Of a DNA stretch of 64,000 nt, positions 5,801-41,591 are shown piece after piece. The notes under the pieces are model-generated. The model had not been told where the DNA came from. It ran no database searches and saw only the letters and a program-made list of their open reading frames with translations. Source of the DNA: Candidatus Omnitrophota bacterium (GTDB taxonomy: Bacteria; Omnitrophota; Gorgyraeia; B26-G9); the NCBI GenBank assembly GCA_043806135.1, contig JAZDHG010000098.1, positions 1,660 to 65,659 of the forward strand. The letters run 5' to 3'. A program made the translations under genes and the position numbers. Each line of letters starts with the position of its first letter. Within the stretch, counting starts at the first letter, position 1.

Positions 5801-8800
5801 GGAAAGATAAAGTTGAGCATTACTGTCTTGCGCGGAAAACGCCTGAGTAATGCTTTTAAACAAAGACAGGAATTAAGTAAGGATGACGCGACCCTTAATG
5901 TTTATAGAAAGGTTATTTATAATTTGGTTGATAACCTTATCGATGAGGAACAACCTGTAGACATAGCATCAATTTTATTTTCTTTATATGGAGATAAGAT
6001 CAGCGCGCAGACCTTAGAGATGCAGAAGTCAGCGCTTCTTGAAAAGATGAGCGAGGACGATGTTAAAGCGATCATTGTTGATCTGCTTACCACGCACTGG
6101 ACATATTTTATTAACGGCCTTGAAACAATAAGTAAAACCCGCGGTTTATCAGATCAGCTTTCCGGAAAAGATGAAAAAGTCAACCGCGCTTTATATGAGA
6201 AGAAAACATCTGAGATATTCGATGAGATGCTATCAGACCTGAAGGAAAATGTATTTGCGGCATTGTTGATGCCGTTCATGTCGGAAAACGACAGGGCTGC
6301 TCTTAACAGCGAAGCAGAAGAGACTATAGCACTTGAAAAAGAAGGAGCAAGTATTTTTGATAAACTTGATCCTGAGGAGATAGCGCAAAGGATCAAAAAA
6401 GGGCTGAACATCACAGTAAAAGAAAAGGTGCCGAGTATTGCCGAGCGGTTCAGTAAATGGGTTTTTGGTGAGGAACGCGGAACTACAGCCTTATTAAGTT
6501 CTGTGCTTGCCAAAGGATTTTATGCGTTTATTACAATAGCAGGAATTTTTGGCGGGGTAATTACTCCTGCTAAAACTGAAGCTTCGATTATACCTTCTGA
6601 TGAAGGGTTAACTGTAAAAGTACAGGAAACAAAAGCAGAATTTTCCTTGAATGATAAGAGAAAAACACAGATACTGGCGGAAATTTCTTTTGCGAAGATA
6701 GCTCAGCTTGTCGACTTAAAACTTCGGTCTTCTGAGTTTCAGGAAAAATATACCGGCCGTCCAAAAGAGCAGTTACAAAGCCTGGCTTACGATGAAGTTA
6801 TCCGCGATATTATCAAAAAGTCAGAACTTGGCCAGGATGTGCTGGCTTCATTAAATGATATAAAGGAAGTTGAGCTTGAATCTATTCCTGTTGTGCAGAG
6901 AGCACAATCAGATGTTTTATCCGGTATTGTGGCTGATACGACGTTACAACAGGTTGTAAAAAAATTCCGTATTCCGGTAAAGACACCCTACCGAACAAAT
7001 CTAATGAGCGAGTTCGAAGCAATCCGTGACCAAGGACGGCGAATACATCAAGGTTTTGATTTCCTTGTACAGGCAGGTACGGATATCTATCCGGCAATGC
7101 CGGGAAAAGTAATTTTTTCAGGAGCACTTAACGGTTACGGGAACATGGTGCTGTTGGAGCATGAAGTTGCGGACAGCACAACAGGACTAGTAAATTATTT
7201 TTACACTCTATACGGGCATAATGAGTCGAATCTGGTTAAGGCCGGGGACTATATCGGAGTTGATACTGTGATCGCTAAAGCAGGAGTTACAGGCAACGCG
7301 TCATCAGCTACCGGCGGCTGCCTGCATTTTGAAATCAAACAAACCACGCAAAAAGTCACCAACTATGCTAAATACCTGAATTTGGCAGCTCTTGATCCAG
7401 AGGTTGTGTTAGGGAAAAATTTATATTTGCCTGCCGATATTAACAAACGCGAGCCGATTCTTGTTGCATCAGCAGATCCAAACATGCCTTTGTTCGCAGC
7501 GGATAGGCGGGAAAAGACAAAACAGCCAAAACCTGTTGAAGCGCGAACTCAGACAAGAAGTATTATCGGAGGCCAGATCAGGCATGAGGTAGCACCAGGG
7601 CAAACGCTTAGCATGATCGCTGAAAAATTCTTTGTTAACGGTACTTCCGGGGAAAAAATCAGAGAATTTTATAATAAACAGCATCCGGAAGCTCCTATGA
7701 AAAATTTGATGCTCCTTACCGGAAAGACACTTGTCCTGGATATAGACGAGGAGATAGCATCTTTATTAAGGCCGGAAGATAAAGACATATCAATACAAAG
7801 ACCTGATTCGGAGTTTTCTAATATAACAGAAAATATTCGAATAAGAGAGCAGGGAATAGAGGGGATAGTCAACTTGCCAGTGCGCCTTAAGGGTGGAAAA
7901 ACATCCTTTGAATTTGATGAACGCACGAAGTTTATGGCTTTGCGCGGTGAAAATAAAGACAAAAAAAATCCGGGAGTTGATTTTGTCTTAAAAGAAGAAA
8001 CGCCTGTATATGCTGCAGCTCCAGGAGAGGTTTTCTTTGTAGGTAAAGCAGAAGCATACGGCAATCTTGTTATTATTCATCATACTGTTAAGGATCAAAG
8101 GGAAAATATAAATCATTTTTACTCTCTGTATGCGCACAATAAGAGCAATAATGTAAAAGTAGGACAGTTGGTAGATGCGACAACTCAGATTTCTGTTGCC
8201 GGCAAAACAGGCAAACCGCCAATAAGTGATGCAGATGCTGTGCTTCATTTTGAAATCAGGCGCGGGATAGAAAAACTTGAAAATCATCAGGAATATCTAC
8301 ATGATGCTTCCTACAGTGCTCTTTATCCCGGAATTGCTCTGAAAACTCAGGTGTTAAATCCTGAATTGTTTTTCAATAAGACATTTGACTCAGGCCTTAA
8401 AGCAGGAAGGCTGATTGTTCCACAAAATGAATATAAGCCTTTATCTGCTCGAAATATTGAGCAAGATAAAGTAATATCCCGTCAGGATCTTGAGTATAGA
8501 ATTGCCCAAAGTATGAGAAATAGAAATTTAAACATTATCCCTGAAGGATTGATGAACGCGATTGTATATCAGCAGCTGGCTAAGGAGTTTGGAGTTGAGT
8601 TTTATCAGCCTGAGGCGGGTCTAAAGGGTGATGATTATTTTGAAAAACTTATGAAGGCGGTTCGTGCAAAGCATGGAGAAGATGTTCTTATTGTTGAAGG
8701 GCATTTTAATTCAGTACCAGAAATGATGTTCTTTTTTAAAGAAAACGGGATTCAATATATCTCTAAAGTTAAGCACGGTGAAGTAAAACAAAAAAAACAT

Positions 8801-30498: not shown

Positions 30499-30858
30499 AT
30501 GGATAAAGAAAGACGTTACAGCATAAGAAAAGAAGCACGCAATATTTCCGTAAGCCTGCGTCCGCTTGACCCTAGCGTGTGGTTTCGTTGCTGGAATGGA
30601 ACAGAATGTATTATACGTGATATGAGTATGGTCGGAGTAGGAGTATTTTCAAAAGAGAATATACCTCAAGGGACGCCTTTGAGCGTTGATTTGCGTCTTG
30701 GCGAAAGTGCCGCTACCATCCGTATTTTCGGAAAAGTGGCATGGGTTATAAAGGAAGAAAACTGCTTCAGATCCGGAGTGAGCTTTTCCTGGTGGAAGGA
30801 TGACCAGGACAAAAAAATCGCCGGCACCTTTCTTGAAAAACTATCGTCTATTAACTGA
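30499..30858 (+). CDS. PilZ domain protein (c-di-GMP-binding family)
   Basis: N-terminal ERRYSIRK (RxxxR-like) followed by DMSMVGVGV (D/NxSxxG-like). Size 119 aa is typical of stand-alone PilZ. RBS ACGGAG upstream. Confidence 0.65.
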   Translation: MDKERRYSIRKEARNISVSLRPLDPSVWFRCWNGTECIIRDMSMVGVGVFSKENIPQGTPLSVDLRLGESAATIRIFGKVAWVIKEENCFRSGVSFSWWKDDQDKKIAGTFLEKLSSIN

Positions 30859-31048: not shown

Positions 31049-31687
31049 ATGCCTATAAGAGCGGACGTGGTTAGCGGAAGAATGTATCATGTTTTTACGA
31101 AAAGCATCGCCGGATTTATTGTTTTTAATAATGATGCTGAGTATGACAGGATGATCTATGCATTAAACTATTATAAGATCATGGGAATTGGCTACTGCTA
31201 TTCAGACTATATCAAACATGTTTATAAAACTGATTTATTGAAAGATAAAGATCAAACAGTAGATATTATCGCATATTGTTTAATGCCCACACATTTACAT
31301 TTTATTCTCAAACAAAATGTCGATAAAGGCATATCACTCTTTATGAGAAAGGTTCTCAATAGTTATTCTAAATATTTTAATTGCAAAATTAAAAGAAAAG
31401 GCCCTTTGTGGGAAAGTAGATTTAAAAATGTTAAGATAGAGAATGATGAACAGTTAATGCATTTAACCCGATATGTGCACTTAAATCCTGTTACCGCAAA
31501 CTTGGTAAAAAAACCAAATTTTTGGAAATATTCTTCATATAATGAATATCTGAACAAGACAAAAGAAAAAATATGCAACTATGGCGAGGTTTTGGATATT
31601 GATCCAGGGGAATATAAAGAATTTGTTGGGTCCCAAATAGATCATCAAAAAGAATTAGCGCATATCAAGCATTTAATCCTTAAATAA
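31049..31687 (+). CDS. REP-associated tyrosine transposase (RAYT) / IS200-like Y1 (HUH) transposase
   Basis: HUH motif in CLMPTHLHFIL. Conserved GPLWESRF (compare G-x-LWQ-RF of Y1 transposases). Catalytic Tyr context RYVHLNPV followed by ...WKYSSY. RBS AAAGGAG upstream. Flanked by REP-like hairpins. Confidence 0.8.
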   Translation: MPIRADVVSGRMYHVFTKSIAGFIVFNNDAEYDRMIYALNYYKIMGIGYCYSDYIKHVYKTDLLKDKDQTVDIIAYCLMPTHLHFILKQNVDKGISLFMRKVLNSYSKYFNCKIKRKGPLWESRFKNVKIENDEQLMHLTRYVHLNPVTANLVKKPNFWKYSSYNEYLNKTKEKICNYGEVLDIDPGEYKEFVGSQIDHQKELAHIKHLILK

Positions 31688-32040: not shown

Positions 32041-32400
32041 ATGAAAAATATCATGCATTTTCTTAGTTGGAGGTTGATGTTCTTAACGACCGTACTTCTA
32101 TTTTTAATGCATTTTTTTGTCTTTATGTCGTGTAGTAAGTTAGATGAAAAAGTGATTGCCTGTGACCAAGGTAATAAAATGCGATTTGTTATCTATAATA
32201 CACTTTCAACTAAAGTTATGATAGGTTATGAGGATTTTAGGCAATTATTTTATCAACCCCTGCGCAAAGGTTCAACAGCAGTAATGAATGCTGAGTTATT
32301 AGGTTCAATGTTTTATTCTTCATCAGTGCCTGTAATTACGAGACGACTCAGGATCAAGGATCCCAGGGGTCACTATATAATGATAGGTAGTGCTATTTAG
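32041..32400 (+). CDS. small hypothetical protein with N-terminal hydrophobic/signal-like segment, immediately upstream of giant gene 2
   Basis: ORF with AGGTGA RBS. Hydrophobic N-terminus ending in FMSCSK (possible lipobox). 8-nt gap to the next ORF suggests co-transcription. Confidence 0.4.
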   Translation: MKNIMHFLSWRLMFLTTVLLFLMHFFVFMSCSKLDEKVIACDQGNKMRFVIYNTLSTKVMIGYEDFRQLFYQPLRKGSTAVMNAELLGSMFYSSSVPVITRRLRIKDPRGHYIMIGSAI

Positions 32401-32408
32401 TTGGAAAA

Positions 32409-35400
32409 TTGCTTATGAAAAGCTTGACTTTAAAAAAACAAAAGGCAGTATATTATCGCGCAAATTCCTTAATTATTGCTTTTGCCTTTGTTTGTACATC
32501 GATAATCCCTCCTGGGTATGCACAGAGCATAACGACTTTGAATCTTCCAAAACCGGGAGTAATGATTCCCCAAAGCCCTGCATTTGTGCCAGTTTTGCTT
32601 AAAGGTATGACGATTTATCCGGATAATCCATTACGGTTTGACTTCATTGTTGATAATGGAAATACTAATTTTATACCTGATGAAATCAAAGAAGAGTCTA
32701 ATCGGCTAGTAAAATATTTTCTTGCCGCCATGACTATTCCGCAGAATGATTTGTGGGTCAACCTGTCTCCCTATGAAGCAAATAAGATTATTCCAACTGA
32801 ACTTGGGAAGACTGAATTAGGCAGAGATATGCTGGCGCAGGATTATATTCTTAAGCAGTTGACAGCATCATTACTTTATCCCGAAAAAGAGCCGGGAAAA
32901 GCTTTCTGGGCCAAGATATATATGAAAGCTAAAGATAAGTTCGGCACAGCAGAAATCCCCATCAATACATTTAATAAGGTCTGGATAATCCCTGAAGAAG
33001 CGCTGGTTTATGAAAATGGCAATGCGGTCTATATTGTTAAAAGCCGTCTAAAAGTGATGCTGGAGGAAGATTATCAGGCTTTGCATCAAAACAGAAAAAG
33101 CGTGAAACTTAAAGTAGATCAATCATCGGATTTACAGACTAAAGGTGCAGCATTAATTTCTTCACAAATAGCGCGTGAAATTATTCTTCCGGAAATTGAA
33201 CGTGAAGTTAATGAAGGTAAAAATTTTGCTTCTATCCGGCAAATTTATCAAGCTTTGATTCTTGCCAAGTGGCACAAAGAAACAATCAAAGAAAGTCTTA
33301 TGTCAAAAGTTTATATTGATCAGAAGAAAATAATGGGAGTAGATTTGTCTGACCCAATGGTTAAAGACAAGATTTATGCCCAATATGTCGAAGCGTTTAA
33401 GAAGGGAGTTTTTAATTTTATCAAGGAAGATTATGACCAAGTGAGTCAGAAGGTTATCCCGAGGAAGTATTTCTCTGGCGGTGAAAAGTTTGGCGATATA
33501 CCTTTGAAGCGAACAAAAGACGCCAGACAGCTTAATTCTTCGCCAATAGGCGATTATTATAAATTAGTAGTAAAAATAGATCCACAGATGAAAACTGGAA
33601 ACGATGATCATGAGATAAAGAATTTGGCTGGAGTCAATCCAAGTAGGGGGTCTCCCCAACTTAAAGAAACTAACGCCGACAAACTAGAATTTGACGCTGA
33701 AGGACTTGATATTGCATTTAAAATTTTCGATTCAAAGGCAGATGTCCCTGAACTCCTTAAAAAAATATCAGGGATTCACGGGGTTGAGAGAGTTGATTGG
33801 AAAGACGGAGTCTTAACAATTATCAGTAAAACAGAGGCTGTCAAAGTCCACCCTAAAGATTTGGAAATAAATGAACGCCATCAAATAAAAGATAGATTTT
33901 ATGTTAAACCTATCTCTGCTTGCGGTGAGATGGCTGTAAAAATTTATCACCGTGATTCTCGTGATGAAATAAAACGGCCCAATAAACCGGTTTATGTGCT
34001 TGGCGTTGTGCGTCCTAGCCATGATGCAGGGGCTGCTTTAATTAAAGACGGGGTTCTTGTCGGAGCTATCGAAGAAGAACGTTTGAATTTGGACAAACAT
34101 GCCAATGCGTACTTCCCTAAGGAGGCAACGCGTTATTTATTAGAAGCTAACGGAATTACCTGGGAAGACATCGACCATATAGCGGTTACTTATGATTATA
34201 ATTTTTACCAGGAAACTCCAAGCAGCAAAGAGCCACATTATTATTATCGTCAAAAATACAATCTTCCTTTTAAGAATTCTTATCGACGATACGATATAAA
34301 TAAGTTTCAATCATTTTTAGAAGGTATGGCTGTTGATTATGGCACAGGATATATTCCTCCAGTTACTTTTGTCAAGCATCACAAGGCTCATGCAGCAGCC
34401 GCATATTATTCTAGTGGATTTACAGAACCGACTTTAGTCGTGTCCATTGATGGCCAAGGAGAAGATGAATCCACAACCATTTGGATAGCGAAAGATGGTC
34501 AATTAAAAAGGATCGCACGCACAACTCCTTTCACGCATTCGTTAGGACATTTTTATCATATCATGACAGTTTACTTGGGATATCAAAGACATGATGAAGG
34601 AAAAGTCATGGGGTATGCTCCTTATGGGGCGCCAAGAAATCTCCAAGAAGAGAGGACGGTCAATCAATTAAGAGAAATAATGCGAGAATTGATATGGTTT
34701 AATCGGAAAACCGAGCAAATTGAAATGAATCAAGAGAATTTTGAATTAACAACAATATCTGCTTTTCCTGGAGTTAAATTTTCAGAAAGTTTTTTACAAC
34801 GGTTAGTTAAGATTATCCCGCCTATGCCTGAAAGCAAGTCTGGTCGTGATTTACAACCAGAAGACCGAAAGAGGGCACATTTGGCATTTGCCATGCAAGA
34901 ACGAGTGGAACAAGTTATTGATGATATGGTTTCTTATTATCTTAATGAAAATAAGGAAACAAAGGGAGTAAAATACGTTGTCATGACTGGAGGCCTTGCT
35001 CTTAATATTGCTTCCAATGGGAAACTTATTGAAAAGGGCACCGTTCAAGCAGATAAATTTTTCGTGCCGGCTTATCCGGCTGATGACGGGACAAGTGTCG
35101 GCGCTGCTCTCTCGGTTTCAACTGAAGAGTATGGCTTGGATGTTCAGAATAAGGTTCAAAAAATATCTTTTGGAAAAACATATTCTGATGAAGAAATTCA
35201 AAGGACATTAGAATGTTTTGGCTTAGAAGAGGGCGTTGACTATGAGCGTATTCAGAACGATGAGCAATTAGTTAATGAGGTAACTGATGCGATTGTGCAT
35301 GACAAAACGGTGGCTTGGTTTCAGGGAGGATCAGAATTAGGTCCAAGAGCCTTGGGGAATAGAAGTATTTTGAATAGGTTAACTGATCCGGAAGGGAATC

Positions 35401-38400
35401 TCAAAGTTAATCGAATCAAAAACCGGGAACTTTGGCGACCATCTGCTTTATCTATTCAAGAAGAACGGGCAGCAGAATTTTTGGATGGAGTAAACACATC
35501 TCCTTTTATGACAATATCATTCCCAGTAACAAAGGACAAAAAAGATATAATCAAAGCTGGGGCTCATCCAGGAGATGGAACGACTCGTCCTCAAACAGTT
35601 TCTCGTGAGGCCAATCCTCTTTATTGGGAATTGCTTGGTGAAATGGGAGAACGCACAGGCGTTCCAGGAGTCCTTAATACATCTTTTAATAGGCGAGGAC
35701 CTATTGTTGAGACACCGGAAGATGCCCTCAATACGTATTTTTATGGCGAAGGATTAGATGTGTTAACCATAGGGCATTATATTCTAAGGAATAAGGAAAA
35801 AATCGTTCCAAGTGTGTTGAATGGTGGAGATGAAGTAGATTTGAAAGAATTTTTCAAGTTAGGAAAAAATAAATCCGAACCATTAAACAAAGTGTGGGAT
35901 GAGTTTTGGCTACAAGCCAATAACGTAGCGGCTTCAAGAGCTTCTGCGCATCAGCACTACTTGATAGTTAATGTTGATGATGCTGGTGAGAATCGTGAAA
36001 TCTTAAGAATTCCATTAATTAAAGAAATGTTTCAAGAGGGGCCGCGTGAATTTATGGTTGCAGACCTTGCCGCAAGAATTCAAAAAGGCATAGGGAGTGA
36101 TAAACTGACAACAATAGCTATTGAAACAACAGCACCTCAATTTAGAGAGATAGTTGTTGATTTATTTGAAAAGTTAGCCCCGGAAAATCTTAAAAGAAAT
36201 TGGAATATTGTTAAATTAGGTTTTGGCGAATGCTCGTCTCTTAAAGAGGAGCTACAACAAAGACGAGTTAATTCTACGGAAGCTGTTAAGGACTTAAATA
36301 GGAATATTAAAAAATGGCAAGGAGAACAGCGTATTGATCCTATTTTTATTGCTGTTACGGGACCAGGCGAAAGCGGCAGAACTTCCATTGTGAATGGATT
36401 GCAAGAGAAACATTTTGTGATTAATGCCGATAGATGGAAGCTATCAGAACATCAGATAAATAATTTGCTCAACTATCCATTTTCGCATATGAGATTTAAT
36501 GATTATGTCAATGCGTTAAAAAGATTACAACAGGGTCAAACAGCTATGATCCCGTTACAGAAAACTCTATCAGCAAAATCGCCACAACGAGGGTTTGCTC
36601 TTTTAAATGAAGAAACAAAAGAAAAATATAAGTATATTTTGGTAAAGGAAAACAGTCAGGTTTGGATCCGACATGACGGACAACTATTTGAGGAAGTTAG
36701 ACCTGAGGCGTCTGATATTTTTATTGTCAATACATCTGTTGCATTAAACTATCCGATATTGCGAAATTTATTTGAAGAAGTTTATTTTGTCGCATCCAAT
36801 GAAGAATTGAAAGAACCATCGAAAAAAGGCGAAGATGGCATTATTCCACCCCACAGGCGTGGAGTTGAATTTGCAACAACTATCGTTGAATTAGATGATG
36901 CCCAAACTTTTTGGACTCCGCTTAAGACCCCGCAGCCAATTAAGCAAATAGACTCAATGTGTGTAGCCCTTGCGAATTATTGTCCAGTGGGTTGTTCATT
37001 TTGTTTTATGCGGTCAGTTCAAGATAAAAGAAAAAGAATAGCATTAGGGTCTAAAGCTATAGAAAGAATTCTTTCTTATGCTAAAGAAAATCAAGTTTTT
37101 CGTATTATGTTATCAGGGGGTGAACCTCTTAGCGAGATTGCAACTGTATTAAGGGTAATACGCGAGGCGGAAGTGCCGCATATCACGATTTTTACTAGTG
37201 GCTATTTTGCAGTAAATGCATCTCGGACGGAAGAGGTCCTTGATCAGTTAGTTGCGGCTGTTAGAGAAAGGAAGCAATCGGGAAAGAAGCCTGTACATAT
37301 ACTTTTTGAAGTAAGTGTTGATGAGTTTCATGGCCGGCGTGTACCGCAAAAGAATATTATCAATATTATCAGAGAATTCGAAAAGGATATGGGTGCGAAG
37401 TACTCAGATATGACCCTTGAAGTTAAGGGCATACTAAATGATGGGGATACAATTCCAGAAATAATGCAAACATTAGGGGGAAAGATCCAGGAAGTTCATC
37501 AAAGCGGACCTTTTCCTACTAAACCGATTATTCTCCCATCTGGCTACACATTTAATGTTCGCTATTCTGAAATAAAACTTGTAAAAGACACGATAAATAC
37601 GAAATTATCAAAAAAACGGTTTGATAGGGTCTATCAAAGAAGATTGGAAGATGATATTATCTATATGGGGAGGGGAGAGAAAAGTGGCGCTAGTTTCTCT
37701 GTTAATTATGACGGAGTGGTCTCTGTTAATGACTATTTAGCAAAAGATTTCGTGTTGGGGAATGCAAATAATGATAACTTCAGTGAGGACGTTGACAGGC
37801 GTTTAAGGTTTGACCCTCTTGTTGTTGCATTACGAGAAATTGGATTAAATACTGTTTTAGACATTACTTCTCGTTTGCGACCAAATATACGGAAAAAATC
37901 GATAGAAATGAACAATCAGTTTATTACAATATCCGATATTTTGGAAGACGAAGAATTGAGAGAAAATATCTATAAGGAATTAATTCAATTGATAGAAAAA
38001 AAAGAGAATCCTGCGTTAAAAGGATCAGCTAATAATGTGCAGTTCTTAAATACTGGTGTTGCTGACTTGACTAAAAAGGTATTTATCATTGGTGATGGCC
38101 ATATTGAATTAGGTGGTTCAGTGACCGTAAAAGGCAATAGAAGCCAGATTAGATTCCAAGGAGAAAATCAAGAGAACTTAGTTATTCGGATGGGTAACGG
38201 CTTGGTAATGGAAGATTGCTTTATTTCTTTAAGAAGGAGCCAAGGGGAGGCTCGTGTGGAATGGCAGGGCGATACTTTGATAATAGAGGAAATGGATATT
38301 GGGGAAAATGTCAGAATCACTAAAGGTGGGGAAATCATGAATGTTCCATGGATAGGTGATGATGTAGAGATTGCAGGGTCATTTTTGATTGAGATGGATA

Positions 38401-39938
38401 ATGCGGGCGTTGGCGACCGAACAAAAATTCTAAGTAATAGCGAAGCAAGAATGAGTACTATTGGTTCAGATGTTGTTATTGACCAGCAATCAAAGATATT
38501 TAAATCAATAGTATCTTCAGGAGCTAAAATCATAAATACGAGTTTAGTGGGGGGGCAGGATGAACTCGTTGGTGGATGGAGACAAAAAGATGACGGAGGA
38601 AAAGGGCGCGGTGTGGTTATTGGAAAGGGCGTGGAGTTTCGTAATGGGATTGCACAACATTTAGGTGTTAAAGAAGGCAAAATAAATCCAATAACTGTGG
38701 CTGATGGAGTAAATCTGGATGGAGTTTTTCTGATTTCCGAAAGGAACAAAGGCATACATGCAATCGTTGATTTAGAGCTCGAGGTAGGTCAACGTGTTTA
38801 TATTTTTGATGGTGTTATTGTTGATGAAGTGGTTAAAAAACAAATTCTAGATAAGCTTGATACGTCGGACATTGTTAAAGTAAGTTTTGAAGAGGGGATT
38901 GCCAAAGTAGAAAGTGTTGCTGGATCAGTGGTAACGCCGGAATTATTAAATGTACCCCAGCTAAAAGAGGAATACGCAACTCAAAAGACTCGTGGAATAC
39001 CAAAGGTATACTCAATAGATACCATACAAGAAGCTAAAGATTTAAACGATCTTTTGTTAAAGAGTGATATTTTTATTAGTCGAGCAGGGGAGATCCTGAC
39101 TTCAAGAGGCGAGAGGGATGACATTGCGGTTCGGATTGGTCAGGGAGCATTTGTTTACCCTGGGGTAGAGATTTATGCGAATGAAGGACGAACAGTTAAT
39201 ATAAATGTTTGGGATTTAGGTAATAGGGGTGGAGCTCTAATAATTGCTGATGAACAAGATGTTCAACTTGGCCCCAAGAATCGGCTGGCAGGCCGTATAG
39301 TTGCGGCAGTTATCAGAGATGTAAATGTCGATGCAGAATTTAATAATTTTGGAGGTATTGCGGATACTATTACAGGAAATGCTAAGATTACTATTAGGAA
39401 TCAAGGCATGCTTAAAAATGCTAATCTTTCATCTGATGGAAAAGGCAAAGGTGAGATCGTTTGGGGGTCGTATCAAGGTGAAAACGTTGATATCGAAGTA
39501 ACTGGTGATGTTGTCGTGGGTTTATCATATGGTGGAATAATTCAAGGACAAAGTTTAAGTGATGGGAGAAACTCAATAAAATTAGTTTCAGGATTTAATT
39601 CTGGTTATAGGTCAGTAATTATAGATGAACGTCAAGAACCGGTTGAACAAATTATTTATGATAGTCTTTATAATGCAACGGATTTTATAATGAAGAGTTT
39701 TTCTTCGCATTCTCCTAAGTATGGTGGTATTGATATGACTGATATAAAGTTCAATCGTAGGGGGGCTGGTGTTGATATCCAAATTGATCCGGTGGTGTTG
39801 CAGAGCATGCTCGAACGGGGAATAAATGGATTTACTCCAGTGATTATCAATTTAACACCGATTAATAACATTATGCCTCTTTTAGGACTTGAACCGAAAA
39901 GCAGAGAAAAGGAGTATGAGTTGTCGAGTTTAAATTAA
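32409..39938 (+). CDS. giant multidomain protein (2509 aa): signal peptide; NodU/CmcH-type carbamoyltransferase; degenerate P-loop; radical-SAM core; C-terminal beta-helix-like repeats
   Basis: Likely true start is the ATG at 32415 (MKSLTLKK...). Signal peptide ends ...SIIPPGYAQS. Carbamoyltransferase N domain spans 33985-35110 (VYVLGVVRPSHDAGAALIKDGVLVGAIEEERLNLDKHANAYFPKEA; HHKAHAAAAYYSSGF; VMTGGLALNIASNGKL; FVPAYPADDGTSVGAAL). Carbamoyltransferase C domain spans 35310-35800 (GPRALGNRSIL, SPFMTISFPV, NTSFNRRGPIVETPEDA). IAVTGPGESGRTS lies at 36346-36390. The radical-SAM motif CPVGCSFC lies at 36981-37004, followed by MLSGGEPL. Glycine-rich hexapeptide-like beta-helix repeats span 38080-39560. 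Confidence 0.85.
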   Translation: MLMKSLTLKKQKAVYYRANSLIIAFAFVCTSIIPPGYAQSITTLNLPKPGVMIPQSPAFVPVLLKGMTIYPDNPLRFDFIVDNGNTNFIPDEIKEESNRLVKYFLAAMTIPQNDLWVNLSPYEANKIIPTELGKTELGRDMLAQDYILKQLTASLLYPEKEPGKAFWAKIYMKAKDKFGTAEIPINTFNKVWIIPEEALVYENGNAVYIVKSRLKVMLEEDYQALHQNRKSVKLKVDQSSDLQTKGAALISSQIAREIILPEIEREVNEGKNFASIRQIYQALILAKWHKETIKESLMSKVYIDQKKIMGVDLSDPMVKDKIYAQYVEAFKKGVFNFIKEDYDQVSQKVIPRKYFSGGEKFGDIPLKRTKDARQLNSSPIGDYYKLVVKIDPQMKTGNDDHEIKNLAGVNPSRGSPQLKETNADKLEFDAEGLDIAFKIFDSKADVPELLKKISGIHGVERVDWKDGVLTIISKTEAVKVHPKDLEINERHQIKDRFYVKPISACGEMAVKIYHRDSRDEIKRPNKPVYVLGVVRPSHDAGAALIKDGVLVGAIEEERLNLDKHANAYFPKEATRYLLEANGITWEDIDHIAVTYDYNFYQETPSSKEPHYYYRQKYNLPFKNSYRRYDINKFQSFLEGMAVDYGTGYIPPVTFVKHHKAHAAAAYYSSGFTEPTLVVSIDGQGEDESTTIWIAKDGQLKRIARTTPFTHSLGHFYHIMTVYLGYQRHDEGKVMGYAPYGAPRNLQEERTVNQLREIMRELIWFNRKTEQIEMNQENFELTTISAFPGVKFSESFLQRLVKIIPPMPESKSGRDLQPEDRKRAHLAFAMQERVEQVIDDMVSYYLNENKETKGVKYVVMTGGLALNIASNGKLIEKGTVQADKFFVPAYPADDGTSVGAALSVSTEEYGLDVQNKVQKISFGKTYSDEEIQRTLECFGLEEGVDYERIQNDEQLVNEVTDAIVHDKTVAWFQGGSELGPRALGNRSILNRLTDPEGNLKVNRIKNRELWRPSALSIQEERAAEFLDGVNTSPFMTISFPVTKDKKDIIKAGAHPGDGTTRPQTVSREANPLYWELLGEMGERTGVPGVLNTSFNRRGPIVETPEDALNTYFYGEGLDVLTIGHYILRNKEKIVPSVLNGGDEVDLKEFFKLGKNKSEPLNKVWDEFWLQANNVAASRASAHQHYLIVNVDDAGENREILRIPLIKEMFQEGPREFMVADLAARIQKGIGSDKLTTIAIETTAPQFREIVVDLFEKLAPENLKRNWNIVKLGFGECSSLKEELQQRRVNSTEAVKDLNRNIKKWQGEQRIDPIFIAVTGPGESGRTSIVNGLQEKHFVINADRWKLSEHQINNLLNYPFSHMRFNDYVNALKRLQQGQTAMIPLQKTLSAKSPQRGFALLNEETKEKYKYILVKENSQVWIRHDGQLFEEVRPEASDIFIVNTSVALNYPILRNLFEEVYFVASNEELKEPSKKGEDGIIPPHRRGVEFATTIVELDDAQTFWTPLKTPQPIKQIDSMCVALANYCPVGCSFCFMRSVQDKRKRIALGSKAIERILSYAKENQVFRIMLSGGEPLSEIATVLRVIREAEVPHITIFTSGYFAVNASRTEEVLDQLVAAVRERKQSGKKPVHILFEVSVDEFHGRRVPQKNIINIIREFEKDMGAKYSDMTLEVKGILNDGDTIPEIMQTLGGKIQEVHQSGPFPTKPIILPSGYTFNVRYSEIKLVKDTINTKLSKKRFDRVYQRRLEDDIIYMGRGEKSGASFSVNYDGVVSVNDYLAKDFVLGNANNDNFSEDVDRRLRFDPLVVALREIGLNTVLDITSRLRPNIRKKSIEMNNQFITISDILEDEELRENIYKELIQLIEKKENPALKGSANNVQFLNTGVADLTKKVFIIGDGHIELGGSVTVKGNRSQIRFQGENQENLVIRMGNGLVMEDCFISLRRSQGEARVEWQGDTLIIEEMDIGENVRITKGGEIMNVPWIGDDVEIAGSFLIEMDNAGVGDRTKILSNSEARMSTIGSDVVIDQQSKIFKSIVSSGAKIINTSLVGGQDELVGGWRQKDDGGKGRGVVIGKGVEFRNGIAQHLGVKEGKINPITVADGVNLDGVFLISERNKGIHAIVDLELEVGQRVYIFDGVIVDEVVKKQILDKLDTSDIVKVSFEEGIAKVESVAGSVVTPELLNVPQLKEEYATQKTRGIPKVYSIDTIQEAKDLNDLLLKSDIFISRAGEILTSRGERDDIAVRIGQGAFVYPGVEIYANEGRTVNINVWDLGNRGGALIIADEQDVQLGPKNRLAGRIVAAVIRDVNVDAEFNNFGGIADTITGNAKITIRNQGMLKNANLSSDGKGKGEIVWGSYQGENVDIEVTGDVVVGLSYGGIIQGQSLSDGRNSIKLVSGFNSGYRSVIIDERQEPVEQIIYDSLYNATDFIMKSFSSHSPKYGGIDMTDIKFNRRGAGVDIQIDPVVLQSMLERGINGFTPVIINLTPINNIMPLLGLEPKSREKEYELSSLN

Positions 39939-40758: not shown

Positions 40759-41160
40759 ATGAGTATATTATTAAAAGAAGACATAATCAGGAAAGCAACG
40801 GATTTCTTTTTAAAAAGGCCGGAAGTTAAATTTGCTTATTTGTTTGGGTCTGTCGCTCTTGGAAAGAGCAATAAATTGAGTGATGTGGATATTGCTGTGT
40901 TTATTGACAATGATTATTTAAAAGAAAATAAATTTACTTATGGATATAAAGCAGAGCTTATAACAGAGCTTATTAAAGTTCTAAGAACAAATAGCGTGGA
41001 TTTAGTTATTTTAAACAGTGTCCCTGTTCTGCTTAAGCATAAGGTTTTGGTAGGAGGTAAATTGCTTGTTTGCCGTGATGATTCAGAAAGAATTAGATTC
41101 CAAGTGAAAAGCCTGAATGAATACAGTGATCTTAAATGTTTGTTTTTAACGCATAATTAG
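40759..41160 (+). CDS. mntA: MntA-type minimal nucleotidyltransferase, antitoxin of a HepT/MntA type VII TA pair
   Basis: GS-x9-11-DxD Pol-beta NTase motif in YLFGSVALGKSNKLSDVDIAVFID. 133 aa. Directly followed (11-nt gap) by a HEPN/DUF86 gene. Confidence 0.8.
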   Translation: MSILLKEDIIRKATDFFLKRPEVKFAYLFGSVALGKSNKLSDVDIAVFIDNDYLKENKFTYGYKAELITELIKVLRTNSVDLVILNSVPVLLKHKVLVGGKLLVCRDDSERIRFQVKSLNEYSDLKCLFLTHN

Positions 41161-41171
41161 AAGAGGCCGCA

Positions 41172-41591
41172 ATGGTTGACGCGCAAATATTGGTCGTAAA
41201 GCTTAAGGAATTAGAAAAATATATCGCTGAATTAGAAAAATTAAAAACAACTTCCCTTGAAACGCTGTCAAAGGATTTAAACAAAATATGGTCACTTGAA
41301 CATGGTTTGCAGTTATCGATTCAAATAATTATTGATATTGGCAATCATATTTTAGCTGATATGAAAGAAAGCAATATAGAAACTTATACTGATGTTATTG
41401 ATCTGTTAGGTGTGAAAAAAGTAATTCCCGTTGATTTCGCGAAACGTATACGCGCAATGGTTGGGCTTAGGAATATTCTTGTTCATGAATATGTAGAAGT
41501 GGATTTAAAACAGCTTTATTCAGTATTGCGGAATAATTTAGATGATTTTAAAGAATTCGTTAAATTAATTAGATGTTTTTTGAAGAAATAA
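41172..41591 (+). CDS. hepT: HepT-type HEPN (DUF86) toxin of the type VII TA pair
   Basis: R-x4-HxY HEPN motif in GLRNILVHEY. 139 aa. Gene order NTase-then-HEPN is typical of MntA/HepT. Confidence 0.8.
   Translation: MVDAQILVVKLKELEKYIAELEKLKTTSLETLSKDLNKIWSLEHGLQLSIQIIIDIGNHILADMKESNIETYTDVIDLLGVKKVIPVDFAKRIRAMVGLRNILVHEYVEVDLKQLYSVLRNNLDDFKEFVKLIRCFLKK

Follow-up and report, generated by a model that had tools for sequence, protein, structure and literature searches.

Why would a bacterium place a carbamoyltransferase and a radical S-adenosylmethionine (SAM) enzyme on one very long polypeptide that begins with an export signal? The question is raised by a 64,000-nucleotide stretch of contig JAZDHG010000098.1 from a Candidatus Omnitrophota bacterium (assembly GCA_043806135.1), hereafter the window, in whose coordinates positions are given unless another locus is named. 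A single unbroken open reading frame (ORF) runs from 32409 to 39938 on the forward strand and comprises 2,509 codons counted from the listed TTG start. Since residue 1 of the homologues aligns with the ATG at 32415, two codons past the TTG, we count amino acids (aa, and q in alignments) from that ATG and obtain a protein of 2,507 aa. A sequence-only reading of the locus had described a secreted giant fusing a NodU/CmcH-type carbamoyltransferase, a radical-SAM core and a beta-helix. Comparison with homologues identifies this protein as one paralogue, or cargo variant, of a very large Omnitrophota family, which we call the bookend proteins.

The gene organization recurs in an independent assembly. 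The closest orthologue, P0001 (3,519 aa; locus L001, 6391-16950), has the same domain order across its alignable length, with 58-65% identity over the main aligned blocks and 36% over the linker region, and carries an extra DUF7831 between the head and the carbamoyltransferase. The fragment P0121 runs from the carbamoyltransferase C domain across into the radical-SAM unit. Both corroborate the proposed fusion of an intact carbamoyltransferase with a radical-SAM core behind an export signal, and the ORF, whose integrity had been questioned, is intact. Its features are as follows:

32415-32522, forward strand: Sec-type signal peptide (aa 1-36), with a predicted signal peptidase I cut at PPGYA/QS
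32523-33599, forward strand: N-terminal bookend domain (aa 37-395), with LNLPxPG, FDFI, WVNLSPYE, AQDYILKQ and IPRKYFSGG, ending in an NSSPIG linker and then the strand YYKLVVKIDPQ
33600-33929, forward strand: linker and small pre-carbamoyltransferase region (aa 396-505), without a Pfam match
33999-35111, forward strand: carbamoyltransferase N domain, Kae1/ASKHA-like, with HHKAHAAAAYY at 34377-34409
35289-35789, forward strand: carbamoyltransferase C domain, YrdC-like, with GPRALGNRSIL at 35340-35372 and NTSFN at 35676-35690
35790-36896, forward strand: spacer domain (aa 1126-1494), its fold without a match, with GPGESGRTS at 36360-36386
36897-38024, forward strand: radical-SAM unit (aa 1495-1870), with CX3CX2C at 36981-37004, SGGEP at 37113-37127 and VSVDEFH at 37311-37331
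38067-39689, forward strand: Gly/Ile/Val-rich, beta-rich C-terminal cargo domain (aa ~1885-2425), 58% identical to P0001
39723-39935, forward strand: C-terminal bookend module (aa 2437-2507), GGIDMT...VDIQIDP...INGFTPVIINLTPINNIMPLLGLEP...EYELSSLN-COOH

It is the two ends of the protein that are shared with its relatives. A whole-protein homologue search returned 2,333 proteins, whose named sources are Omnitrophica/Omnitrophota or Candidatus Aceula; those listed are 1.4-4.3 thousand amino acids (kaa) long. When mapped by BLAST, nearly all homologues match q1-~390 (50-68% identity) and q2437-2507, and their middles are unrelated. The signal peptide and N-domain (aa ~1-395) are 50-68% identical to more than 100 members, with 62 invariant columns, and over aa 2437-2507 the identity to member C-termini is 40-70%. 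The C-module follows the consensus GGIDMN.I.V.RQG.GVDIQFDP....GidGF.PVIINitPi.SvlPLLGLEP..rEE.Ey.E.S.LN up to the C-terminus, and it forms the extreme C-terminus in 163 out of 231 fetched members, many of the others being seemingly truncated sequences. More than 100 proteins thus have the N-domain and C-module in common around unrelated middles. Since the N-terminal ~395 aa and the C-terminal ~70 aa define a huge paralogue family, we regard the 2,507-aa protein as a cargo variant of a platform and not as a one-off enzyme.

A profile of the N-domain, compared with 1.84 billion representative proteins, matches 8,379 clusters at E <= 1e-3, of which 6,751 remain at E <= 1e-30; in all 150 listed clusters the match lies at protein residues ~1-400. 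GTDB species genomes hold at least 584 bookend loci. Among the best 80 of these loci, nearly all are labelled Omnitrophota/Omnitrophica, with at most five per genome among these 80; the remaining labels are "uncultured Planctomycetales" in some cases, and Candidatus Aceula, Candidatus Elulimicrobium or an unnamed bacterium in a few. Bookend genes stand head to tail in tandem in L044, L004, L005, L007 and L034, where 50-500 bp separate the end of one C-module from the next N-domain (the C-modules of L044 lie at 23-250, 2753-2947 and 5947-6126). Neither bookend has a sequence match in Pfam, NCBIfam or PDB, and the public names of members follow the cargo: ROK family protein, Maf family protein, LpxC, nucleoside monophosphate kinase, M48 metalloprotease and glycosyltransferase. 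In the literature searched we found no prior description of a conserved head/tail carrier or of cassette behaviour, and there is no Pfam (2025) or NCBIfam (2026) model. The family is apparently undescribed, and its members seem so far to have been seen almost only in Omnitrophota.

The shortest full-length member, P0157, has 585 aa, and the longest exceed 4,600 aa. P0157 and P0190 (633 aa) are nearly cargo-free: between head and tail the former has an acidic linker and two transmembrane (TM)-like helices, and the latter a repeated stretch without a Pfam match. Both are good targets for structural work.

How the middles come to differ is indicated by the 141 members that have both modules. Identity in the N-domain correlates with identity in the C-module (r = 0.68; 9,870 pairs), and cargo does not follow: only two out of 58 pairs with N-domains at least 80% identical share more than 50% of their cargo. 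In the pair P0083 and P0175 the bookends are 99% and 95% identical and the cargo similarity is zero. The carrier is therefore inherited or homogenised as a unit while the cargo changes, and these comparisons show cargo exchanged like a cassette between a conserved head and tail.

The exchanged cargo was read from the Pfam annotation of relatives. It includes glycolytic and gluconeogenic enzymes (hexokinase, PGI, PFK, aldolase, TIM, PGK, PGAM-type phosphatases, enolase, pyruvate kinase, PPDK, PEPCK and FBPase) and enzymes of nucleotide metabolism (NDK, adenylate, guanylate and cytidylate kinases, and NUDIX). To these we add sugar-nucleotide enzymes, methyltransferases, radical-SAM proteins with B12 domains, REC+GGDEF signalling proteins, the chaperone DnaJ, and Ank, HEAT and TPR repeats. 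Family cargo is overwhelmingly of cytoplasmic type, needing ATP, NAD, SAM or cytoplasmic partner proteins.

Two short motifs are enriched ~20-fold in members P0001-P0231, SSP[VIL] (267 observed vs. 13 in shuffles) and D.AM[LMVI] (232 vs. 10). Their sites lie after the N-domain, before the C-module and, in further copies, within the cargo; the 2,507-aa protein has one, NSSPIG at aa 374-379 (33534-33551). These punctuation motifs could be processing or glycosylation sites.

The cargo carried here is shown to consist of an O-carbamoyltransferase, a ~370-aa spacer, an orphan radical-SAM unit and a ~540-aa beta-rich, possibly hexapeptide-like domain. The combination of carbamoyltransferase and radical-SAM cargo has three examples: the 2,507-aa protein, P0001 and the fragment P0121. 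A search with the cargo only (aa 1126-2440) returned two proteins and missed P0001 and P0088, which indicates that the word-indexed search under-reports, so that the count of this cargo combination is a lower bound.

Both domains of the carbamoyltransferase are present and intact, as the sequence-only reading had held. Carbam_trans_N (PF02543) matches aa 529-899 (E 4.4e-41, 141.9 bits; cut-off 24) and Carbam_trans_C (PF16861) aa 959-1125 (E 1.1e-49, 168.7 bits; cut-off 27). Among PDB sequences the matches are to NovN (9s2t, 5.8e-70), TobZ (3ven, 1.1e-65) and also GdmN, and the NovN alignment places the HHKAHA, DGQGE, GPRALGNRSIL, DGTTRPQTV and NTSFN motifs in register. The N domain has the HxxxH and Asp metal-site motifs and the C domain has GPRALGNRS, KxRE, DGxxRxQ and NTSFN. 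NodU is matched in NCBIfam at 5.5e-33; the NodU equivalog NF041651 is not reached (114.6 bits vs. a cut-off of 1000). At the level of sequence motifs, a TobZ/NovN/NodU-type O-carbamoyltransferase with intact catalytic motifs is confirmed. In TobZ chemistry, which would be expected here too, carbamoyl phosphate and ATP give carbamoyl-AMP and then the O-carbamoyl product.

TobZ, NovN, GdmN, NodU and CmcH have the same two domains in the same order and share the catalytic motifs, although FRPFAP gives way to WRPSAL here. They differ in setting: these enzymes are free-standing, cytoplasmic proteins of ~570-700 aa from biosynthetic or nodulation clusters, whereas the present module is internal to a signal-peptide-bearing protein of 2,507 aa and has no cluster context. 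The region preceding it (aa 396-505) accompanies the carbamoyltransferase in P0001 (36% identity) and in P0002 (alignment from q423), where the carbamoyltransferase cargo is fused to a ribulose-phosphate 3-epimerase.

The radical-SAM core with CPVGCSFC and SGGEP likewise stands as first read. At aa 1516-1618, Pfam matches exceed their cut-offs for Radical_SAM (PF04055, 33.7 bits; cut-off 29.5) and Fer4_12 (39.2 bits; cut-off 22). CPVGCSFC lies at aa 1523-1530 (C1523, C1527 and C1530) and SGGEP at aa 1567-1571, and CX3CX2C, GGE[PA] and SxDEFH are kept in all seven copies of the unit. The unit is duplicated in tandem in P0001 and P0122, which marks it as a discrete module; in P0122 it is placed after a histidine-phosphatase domain. 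A SPASM domain, for which a check had been proposed, was not found, nor was a twitch auxiliary domain: the whole protein has nine cysteines, none of them between aa 1530 and C1935, which rules out an auxiliary cluster. NCBIfam models of SPASM maturases (YydG, PqqE and SuiB-like) match at <=36 bits against cut-offs of >=300, and PDB 5v1q aligns over 70 aa only.

A profile of the radical-SAM unit, compared with 5.8 billion proteins, found only six further homologues, one of 290 aa and five stand-alone proteins of ~530 aa (24-28% identity). Two of the six could be located on contigs. In L081 (4859-12121) and L082 (175-7437) the gene order is ThsA-like SIR2, radical SAM, NUDIX/adenosine deaminase (with overlapping start and stop) and FRG, a context that looks like a defence island. 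In L083 (8001-13481) the relative stands among integrase, transposase and MobA genes, with an RpiB+NUDIX fusion three genes downstream. The stand-alone relatives may represent an undescribed defence-island radical-SAM system. These neighbourhoods, together with the ribulose-phosphate epimerase of P0002 and the histidine phosphatase of P0122, hint weakly at nucleotide, ADP-ribose or pentose-phosphate-type substrates for the cargo.

PADLOC pVip models match the cluster-binding region (profile positions 3-66 of 257, 24 bits, E 4e-6), and, as with pVip, a defence context is suggested by the ThsA-like SIR2, NUDIX/adenosine-deaminase and FRG genes beside stand-alone relatives. However, only the ~65 residues around CX3CX2C align, and the other ~300 aa, including SxDEFH and a helical tail, are peculiar to this small family. 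Since the match is confined to the generic cluster-binding region, the unit is not a viperin. It is a tiny orphan branch of a known superfamily, the enzymatic modules being otherwise ordinary members of theirs.

For the remaining cargo the sequence-only reading fared less well. It had seen a degenerate P-loop in GPGESGRTS (aa 1316-1324), which has R at the position of the Walker lysine. P0001 has GTDIERRRG and P0121 GPDEKGRDS at this site, and the spacer around it (aa 1126-1494) has no Pfam or PDB match; a functional P-loop is ruled out by this lack of conservation in orthologues. The spacer as such is kept in P0001 and P0121, and its first ~130 aa also follow the carbamoyltransferase of P0002. 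Of the C-terminal beta-helix, the glycine-rich composition holds (12.6% Gly and 21% Ile/Val over aa ~1885-2425), as does a weak autocorrelation at 6, 12 and 24 residues, but LbH_EIF2B stays below threshold (23.7 bits; cut-off 54) and Hexapep matches at E 0.31. On this evidence the domain is possibly a left-handed beta-helix broken by an alpha/beta insert.

The bookends were modelled with AlphaFold2. The N-domain (33 sequences; predicted local distance difference test [pLDDT] 68, predicted template modelling score [pTM] 0.67) is predicted as a mixed alpha/beta domain with a beta-hairpin, helices, a four-strand meander and a long helical hairpin. A cargo-deleted construct joining q37-400 to q2416-2507 (42 aligned members) was modelled at pLDDT 72 and pTM 0.76, with the C-module at pLDDT 67-87. 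It contains two long strands, q381-392 (YYKLVVKIDPQ) and q2470-2483 (GFTPVIINLTPINN), which are model residues 345-356 and 419-432. The model is compatible with a tail that pairs with the end of the head through long beta-strands and so closes the cargo into a loop.

The N-terminus of the protein looks like a cleavable Sec signal. There is one hydrophobic segment only in the 2,507 aa, at aa 18-36 with a 14-aa core at aa 18-31; it is preceded by a K/R-rich n-region and leads into PPGYA/QS. Over the 184 members with complete N-termini, the net charge of the n-region averages +3.5 and is at least +2 in 96%, and the hydrophobic core is short (~12-15 aa) with an average KD (Kyte-Doolittle) value of 2.6. 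A small-x-A/Q site is present in 76% of members, most frequently as SYA/QS; here it is GYA/QS. The positive-inside and -3/-1 rules are satisfied, and the N-terminus therefore reads as a cleavable Sec signal with a predicted cut at A36/Q37. The doubt whether the start at 32415 yields such a signal is answered by the positive n-region and by an A-x-A/Q site kept family-wide. The opposing thought that a TM anchor leaves the enzymes in the cytoplasm fits poorly with that site and with a chain that has no further TM segment. Tat export of a folded Fe-S enzyme was considered and rejected (an RR-type motif occurs in two of 228 members and is absent from the 2,507-aa protein), as was lipoprotein anchoring (a lipobox-like string in only four members).

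The earlier remark that an exported radical-SAM enzyme would be puzzling is thereby a real one, and it extends to the whole bookend family with its cytoplasm-type cargo. The paradox is general because Sec substrates cross the membrane unfolded and because, to our knowledge, there is no Fe-S assembly, ATP or SAM outside a cytoplasm.

The principal neighbours of the bookend gene are as follows:

2894-30283, forward strand: 9,129-aa ORF with SecA_DEAD, SecA P-loop, SecA preprotein-binding, two M23, LysM and GH76 domains
30499-30858, forward strand: PilZ gene following the 9,129-aa ORF
31049-31687, forward strand: IS200-like Y1 transposase upstream of the bookend gene
32041-32400, forward strand: 119-aa ORF ending 15 bp before the ATG, with a hydrophobic, lipobox-like N-terminus (FVFMSC) and no Pfam match
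40759-41591, forward strand: MNT/HepT (nucleotidyltransferase/RNase) toxin-antitoxin pair downstream

Further downstream are a 1,989-aa multi-TM HEAT/DUF218/cupin protein, a major facilitator superfamily (MFS) transporter, two GH2-like proteins, a PilZ protein and a pilin-like protein. The Pfam domains of the 9,129-aa ORF all lie in its first 4,500 aa, with none in the last 4,629 aa; its layout matches the published 'Archaeovorin' layout, though at less than 10 kaa. A PilZ gene after the giant has been described for Omnitrophota giants (10.1101/2023.11.21.568195). The IS200-like transposase and the MNT/HepT pair place mobile or selfish elements on both sides of the bookend gene. The 9,129-aa (from 2894), 1,989-aa (from 42006) and 290-aa (from 48471) ORFs share a second leader, a hydrophobic stretch followed by QSFL[IL][LM]DIA[WF]A[GA]GG; this leader is unrelated to the bookend head and may define another targeting class.

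P0001 stands in an unrelated neighbourhood of hisG, GHMP kinase, spoVG and serine recombinase genes, and none of 80 related loci has a homologue of the ORF at 32041-32400 or of the other window neighbours. A conserved operon partner is rejected on both counts. This absence of shared synteny leaves a functional island with the giant unsupported, contrary to the link proposed at first, and neither a nearby carbamoyl-phosphate supply nor an antibiotic- or glycan-tailoring cluster has materialised: within the 64 kb there is no carbamoyl-phosphate synthase, carbamate kinase or biosynthetic cluster.

What would such a protein do? The reading that we tentatively prefer, and which we regard as nearly as apt to be right as wrong, joins Sec export and the cut at A36/Q37 with a shared handle and with cargo that acts on prey. 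The precursor would be exported unfolded via Sec. The bookends, co-evolving and perhaps paired by long beta-strands, would provide a common handle, recognised by a surface or transfer apparatus peculiar to the lineage, for example type II secretion system (T2SS)/type-IV-pilus-like systems encoded near giant genes. The cargo would then work outside the producer cytoplasm, either where predator and prey make contact or within the cytoplasm of the prey, which would supply ATP, carbamoyl phosphate, SAM, reductant and Fe-S assembly. The carbamoyltransferase would there form carbamoyl-AMP to O-carbamoylate a hydroxyl of sugar or nucleoside type, and the radical-SAM unit would act on substrates of the same class by 5'-deoxyadenosyl-radical chemistry. 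Action between predator and prey fits the intron RNA of V. archaeovorus found inside dead prey archaea and the open cytoplasmic contact shown in electron micrographs (PMC13153191). A bolder version seems unlikely to us, though worth stating: modular intercellular delivery, by which ultra-small predatory or parasitic Omnitrophota would pass hundreds of enzymes into the prey or host cytoplasm and rewire or drain its metabolism, with cassette-exchanged cargo released at the punctuation motifs. Several points weigh against action of the cargo in or at the prey. Export of the family is read from sequence rules only, delivery into prey is assumed in order to rescue function, and no way is known for a [4Fe-4S] enzyme to acquire its cluster outside a cytoplasm once Sec has exported it unfolded. 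We identified no translocation or pore-forming domain, autoprotease or secretion-system partner, and no gene neighbour is conserved. No fold known from solved structures resembles the N-domain; in a mutual-information test of N-C contact (164 sequences), the top pairs are linker-type covariation with no in-register strand pattern; and the substrate assignment is weak guilt by association.

Other readings place the protein elsewhere. It might be exported and kept in a periplasmic or surface coat of the producer, the bookends anchoring it to a common envelope structure, the carbamoyltransferase tailoring the cell's own or prey-released glycans and the radical-SAM unit being cluster-less or structural outside the cell. 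The conserved signal peptide would suit this, and surface proteins are often built as many paralogues with one anchor domain in common, as in the CWP family of C. difficile, SLH proteins and cellulosomal dockerins. The neighbourhood also encodes GH2-like hydrolases, the M23/LysM giant, a pilin and PilZ proteins, and West-Roberts et al. propose extracellular pre-processing of sugars (10.1101/2023.11.21.568195). We nevertheless think a retained coat rather unlikely: the carbamoyltransferase depends on ATP and carbamoyl phosphate, most of the family's cargo depends on cytosolic cofactors that are lacking outside cells, and the strict retention of cluster and SAM motifs in seven out of seven radical-SAM copies argues for catalytic use. 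Fe-S loading would be unproblematic, and the cytoplasmic chemistry of the cargo at home, if the protein were not exported at all but tethered by its hydrophobic N-terminus to the membrane's inner face or to a structure inside the cell, with the bookends scaffolding cytoplasmic multi-enzyme assemblies. Doubts about extracellular predictions for such domains have been published (10.1101/2023.11.21.568195), and 46% of long Omnitrophota proteins were assigned membrane-anchored cytoplasmic topologies (10.64898/2026.06.07.730766). A tether of this kind is doubtful all the same, since the n-region charge would by the positive-inside rule put the N-terminus inside and the rest outside, the signal peptidase I-type site follows directly on the short core, and no second hydrophobic segment would return the chain. 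A dedicated antibiotic- or glycan-tailoring enzyme, coupled to the wall-attacking giant in one island, appears very improbable. TobZ, NovN, GdmN and CmcH do act as tailoring enzymes, and the bookend gene lies only 2.1 kb downstream of the giant with its SecA-like, M23, LysM and GH76 domains. However, the IS200-like transposase and the PilZ gene intervene, P0001 sits among other genes altogether, the 64 kb hold no biosynthetic-cluster or carbamoyl-phosphate genes, and the bookends tie the gene to a genome-wide paralogue family and not to a locus. As for an assembly or gene-calling artefact that joined separate genes into a chimeric ORF, only the unusual size and domain mix speak for it, and it can hardly be right given an uninterrupted ORF of 7.5 kb, an orthologue with the same domain order in an independent assembly (58-65% over the main blocks, 36% over the linker) and a fragment, P0121, that spans the carbamoyltransferase C domain/radical-SAM junction.

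Earlier reports describe Omnitrophota giants in which enzymes of cytoplasmic type follow a signal peptide, and they question the topology of these giants (10.1101/2023.11.21.568195; 10.64898/2026.06.07.730766). These 'Archaeovorins' resemble the bookend proteins in phylum and in carrying NUDIX, PPDK, glycolytic enzymes, radical SAM and HEAT/TPR behind predicted signal peptides. They pose the same topological paradox, and one giant adjoins the bookend gene in the window. They differ in size (10-147 kaa vs. 0.6-4.6 kaa), in their many TM helices, in their SecA-like or C39 domains and in being described as poorly conserved, whereas bookend proteins are usually without internal TM helices and strongly conserved in the N-domain and C-module. 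Against the Archaeovorin definition (more than 10 kaa, a SecA-like domain and multiple TM helices), the present protein is 2,507 aa long, lacks a SecA domain and has a single hydrophobic segment.

In logic, MARTX/polymorphic toxins or TpsA/CdiA passengers come closest, though their defining domains are absent here. MARTX and polymorphic toxins have conserved N- and C-terminal regions around an exchangeable effector array, a likeness to the near-identical frames with unrelated cargo of P0083 and P0175. Unlike theirs, bookend cargo consists of metabolic enzymes and repeat proteins, and export would be by Sec; Pfam and NCBIfam find in the 2,507-aa protein no MARTX glycine-rich A/B/C repeats, cysteine protease domain (CPD) autoprotease, RTX/type I secretion system (T1SS) signal or toxin domain. 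TpsA and CdiA have a signal peptide followed by a conserved secretion domain, and terminal sorting modules are known in the C-terminal domains of type IX secretion system (T9SS) substrates and in dockerins. The bookend signal peptide similarly precedes a conserved domain of handling type, and the ~70-aa C-module is similarly terminal. However, the two-partner secretion (TPS) domain that defines TpsA, a right-handed beta-helix after the signal peptide, is absent from the 2,507-aa protein, and the C-module matches no Pfam or NCBIfam sorting-signal model.

The fusion that first drew attention is thus a rare cargo of a general, unexplained platform. With more than 8,000 clusters at 50% identity and several copies per genome, the bookend family is large, yet it has no Pfam or NCBIfam model or recognisable fold, and names given by NCBI after the cargo mislabel multi-domain fusions as housekeeping enzymes, which may distort metabolic reconstructions of Omnitrophota. 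The 2,507-aa protein would be the first in which a carbamoyltransferase is fused to a radical-SAM enzyme. It also draws attention to an orphan radical-SAM subfamily, found besides in contexts that resemble defence islands. The family sharpens the published paradox of ATP-, SAM- and Fe-S-dependent enzymes behind export signals, in small proteins (0.6-2.5 kaa) that are tractable and in which carrier and cargo are separable. If the cargo is indeed delivered into prey, the bookend proteins would amount to an effector system of a new type, and to a modular scaffold of natural origin for delivering proteins.

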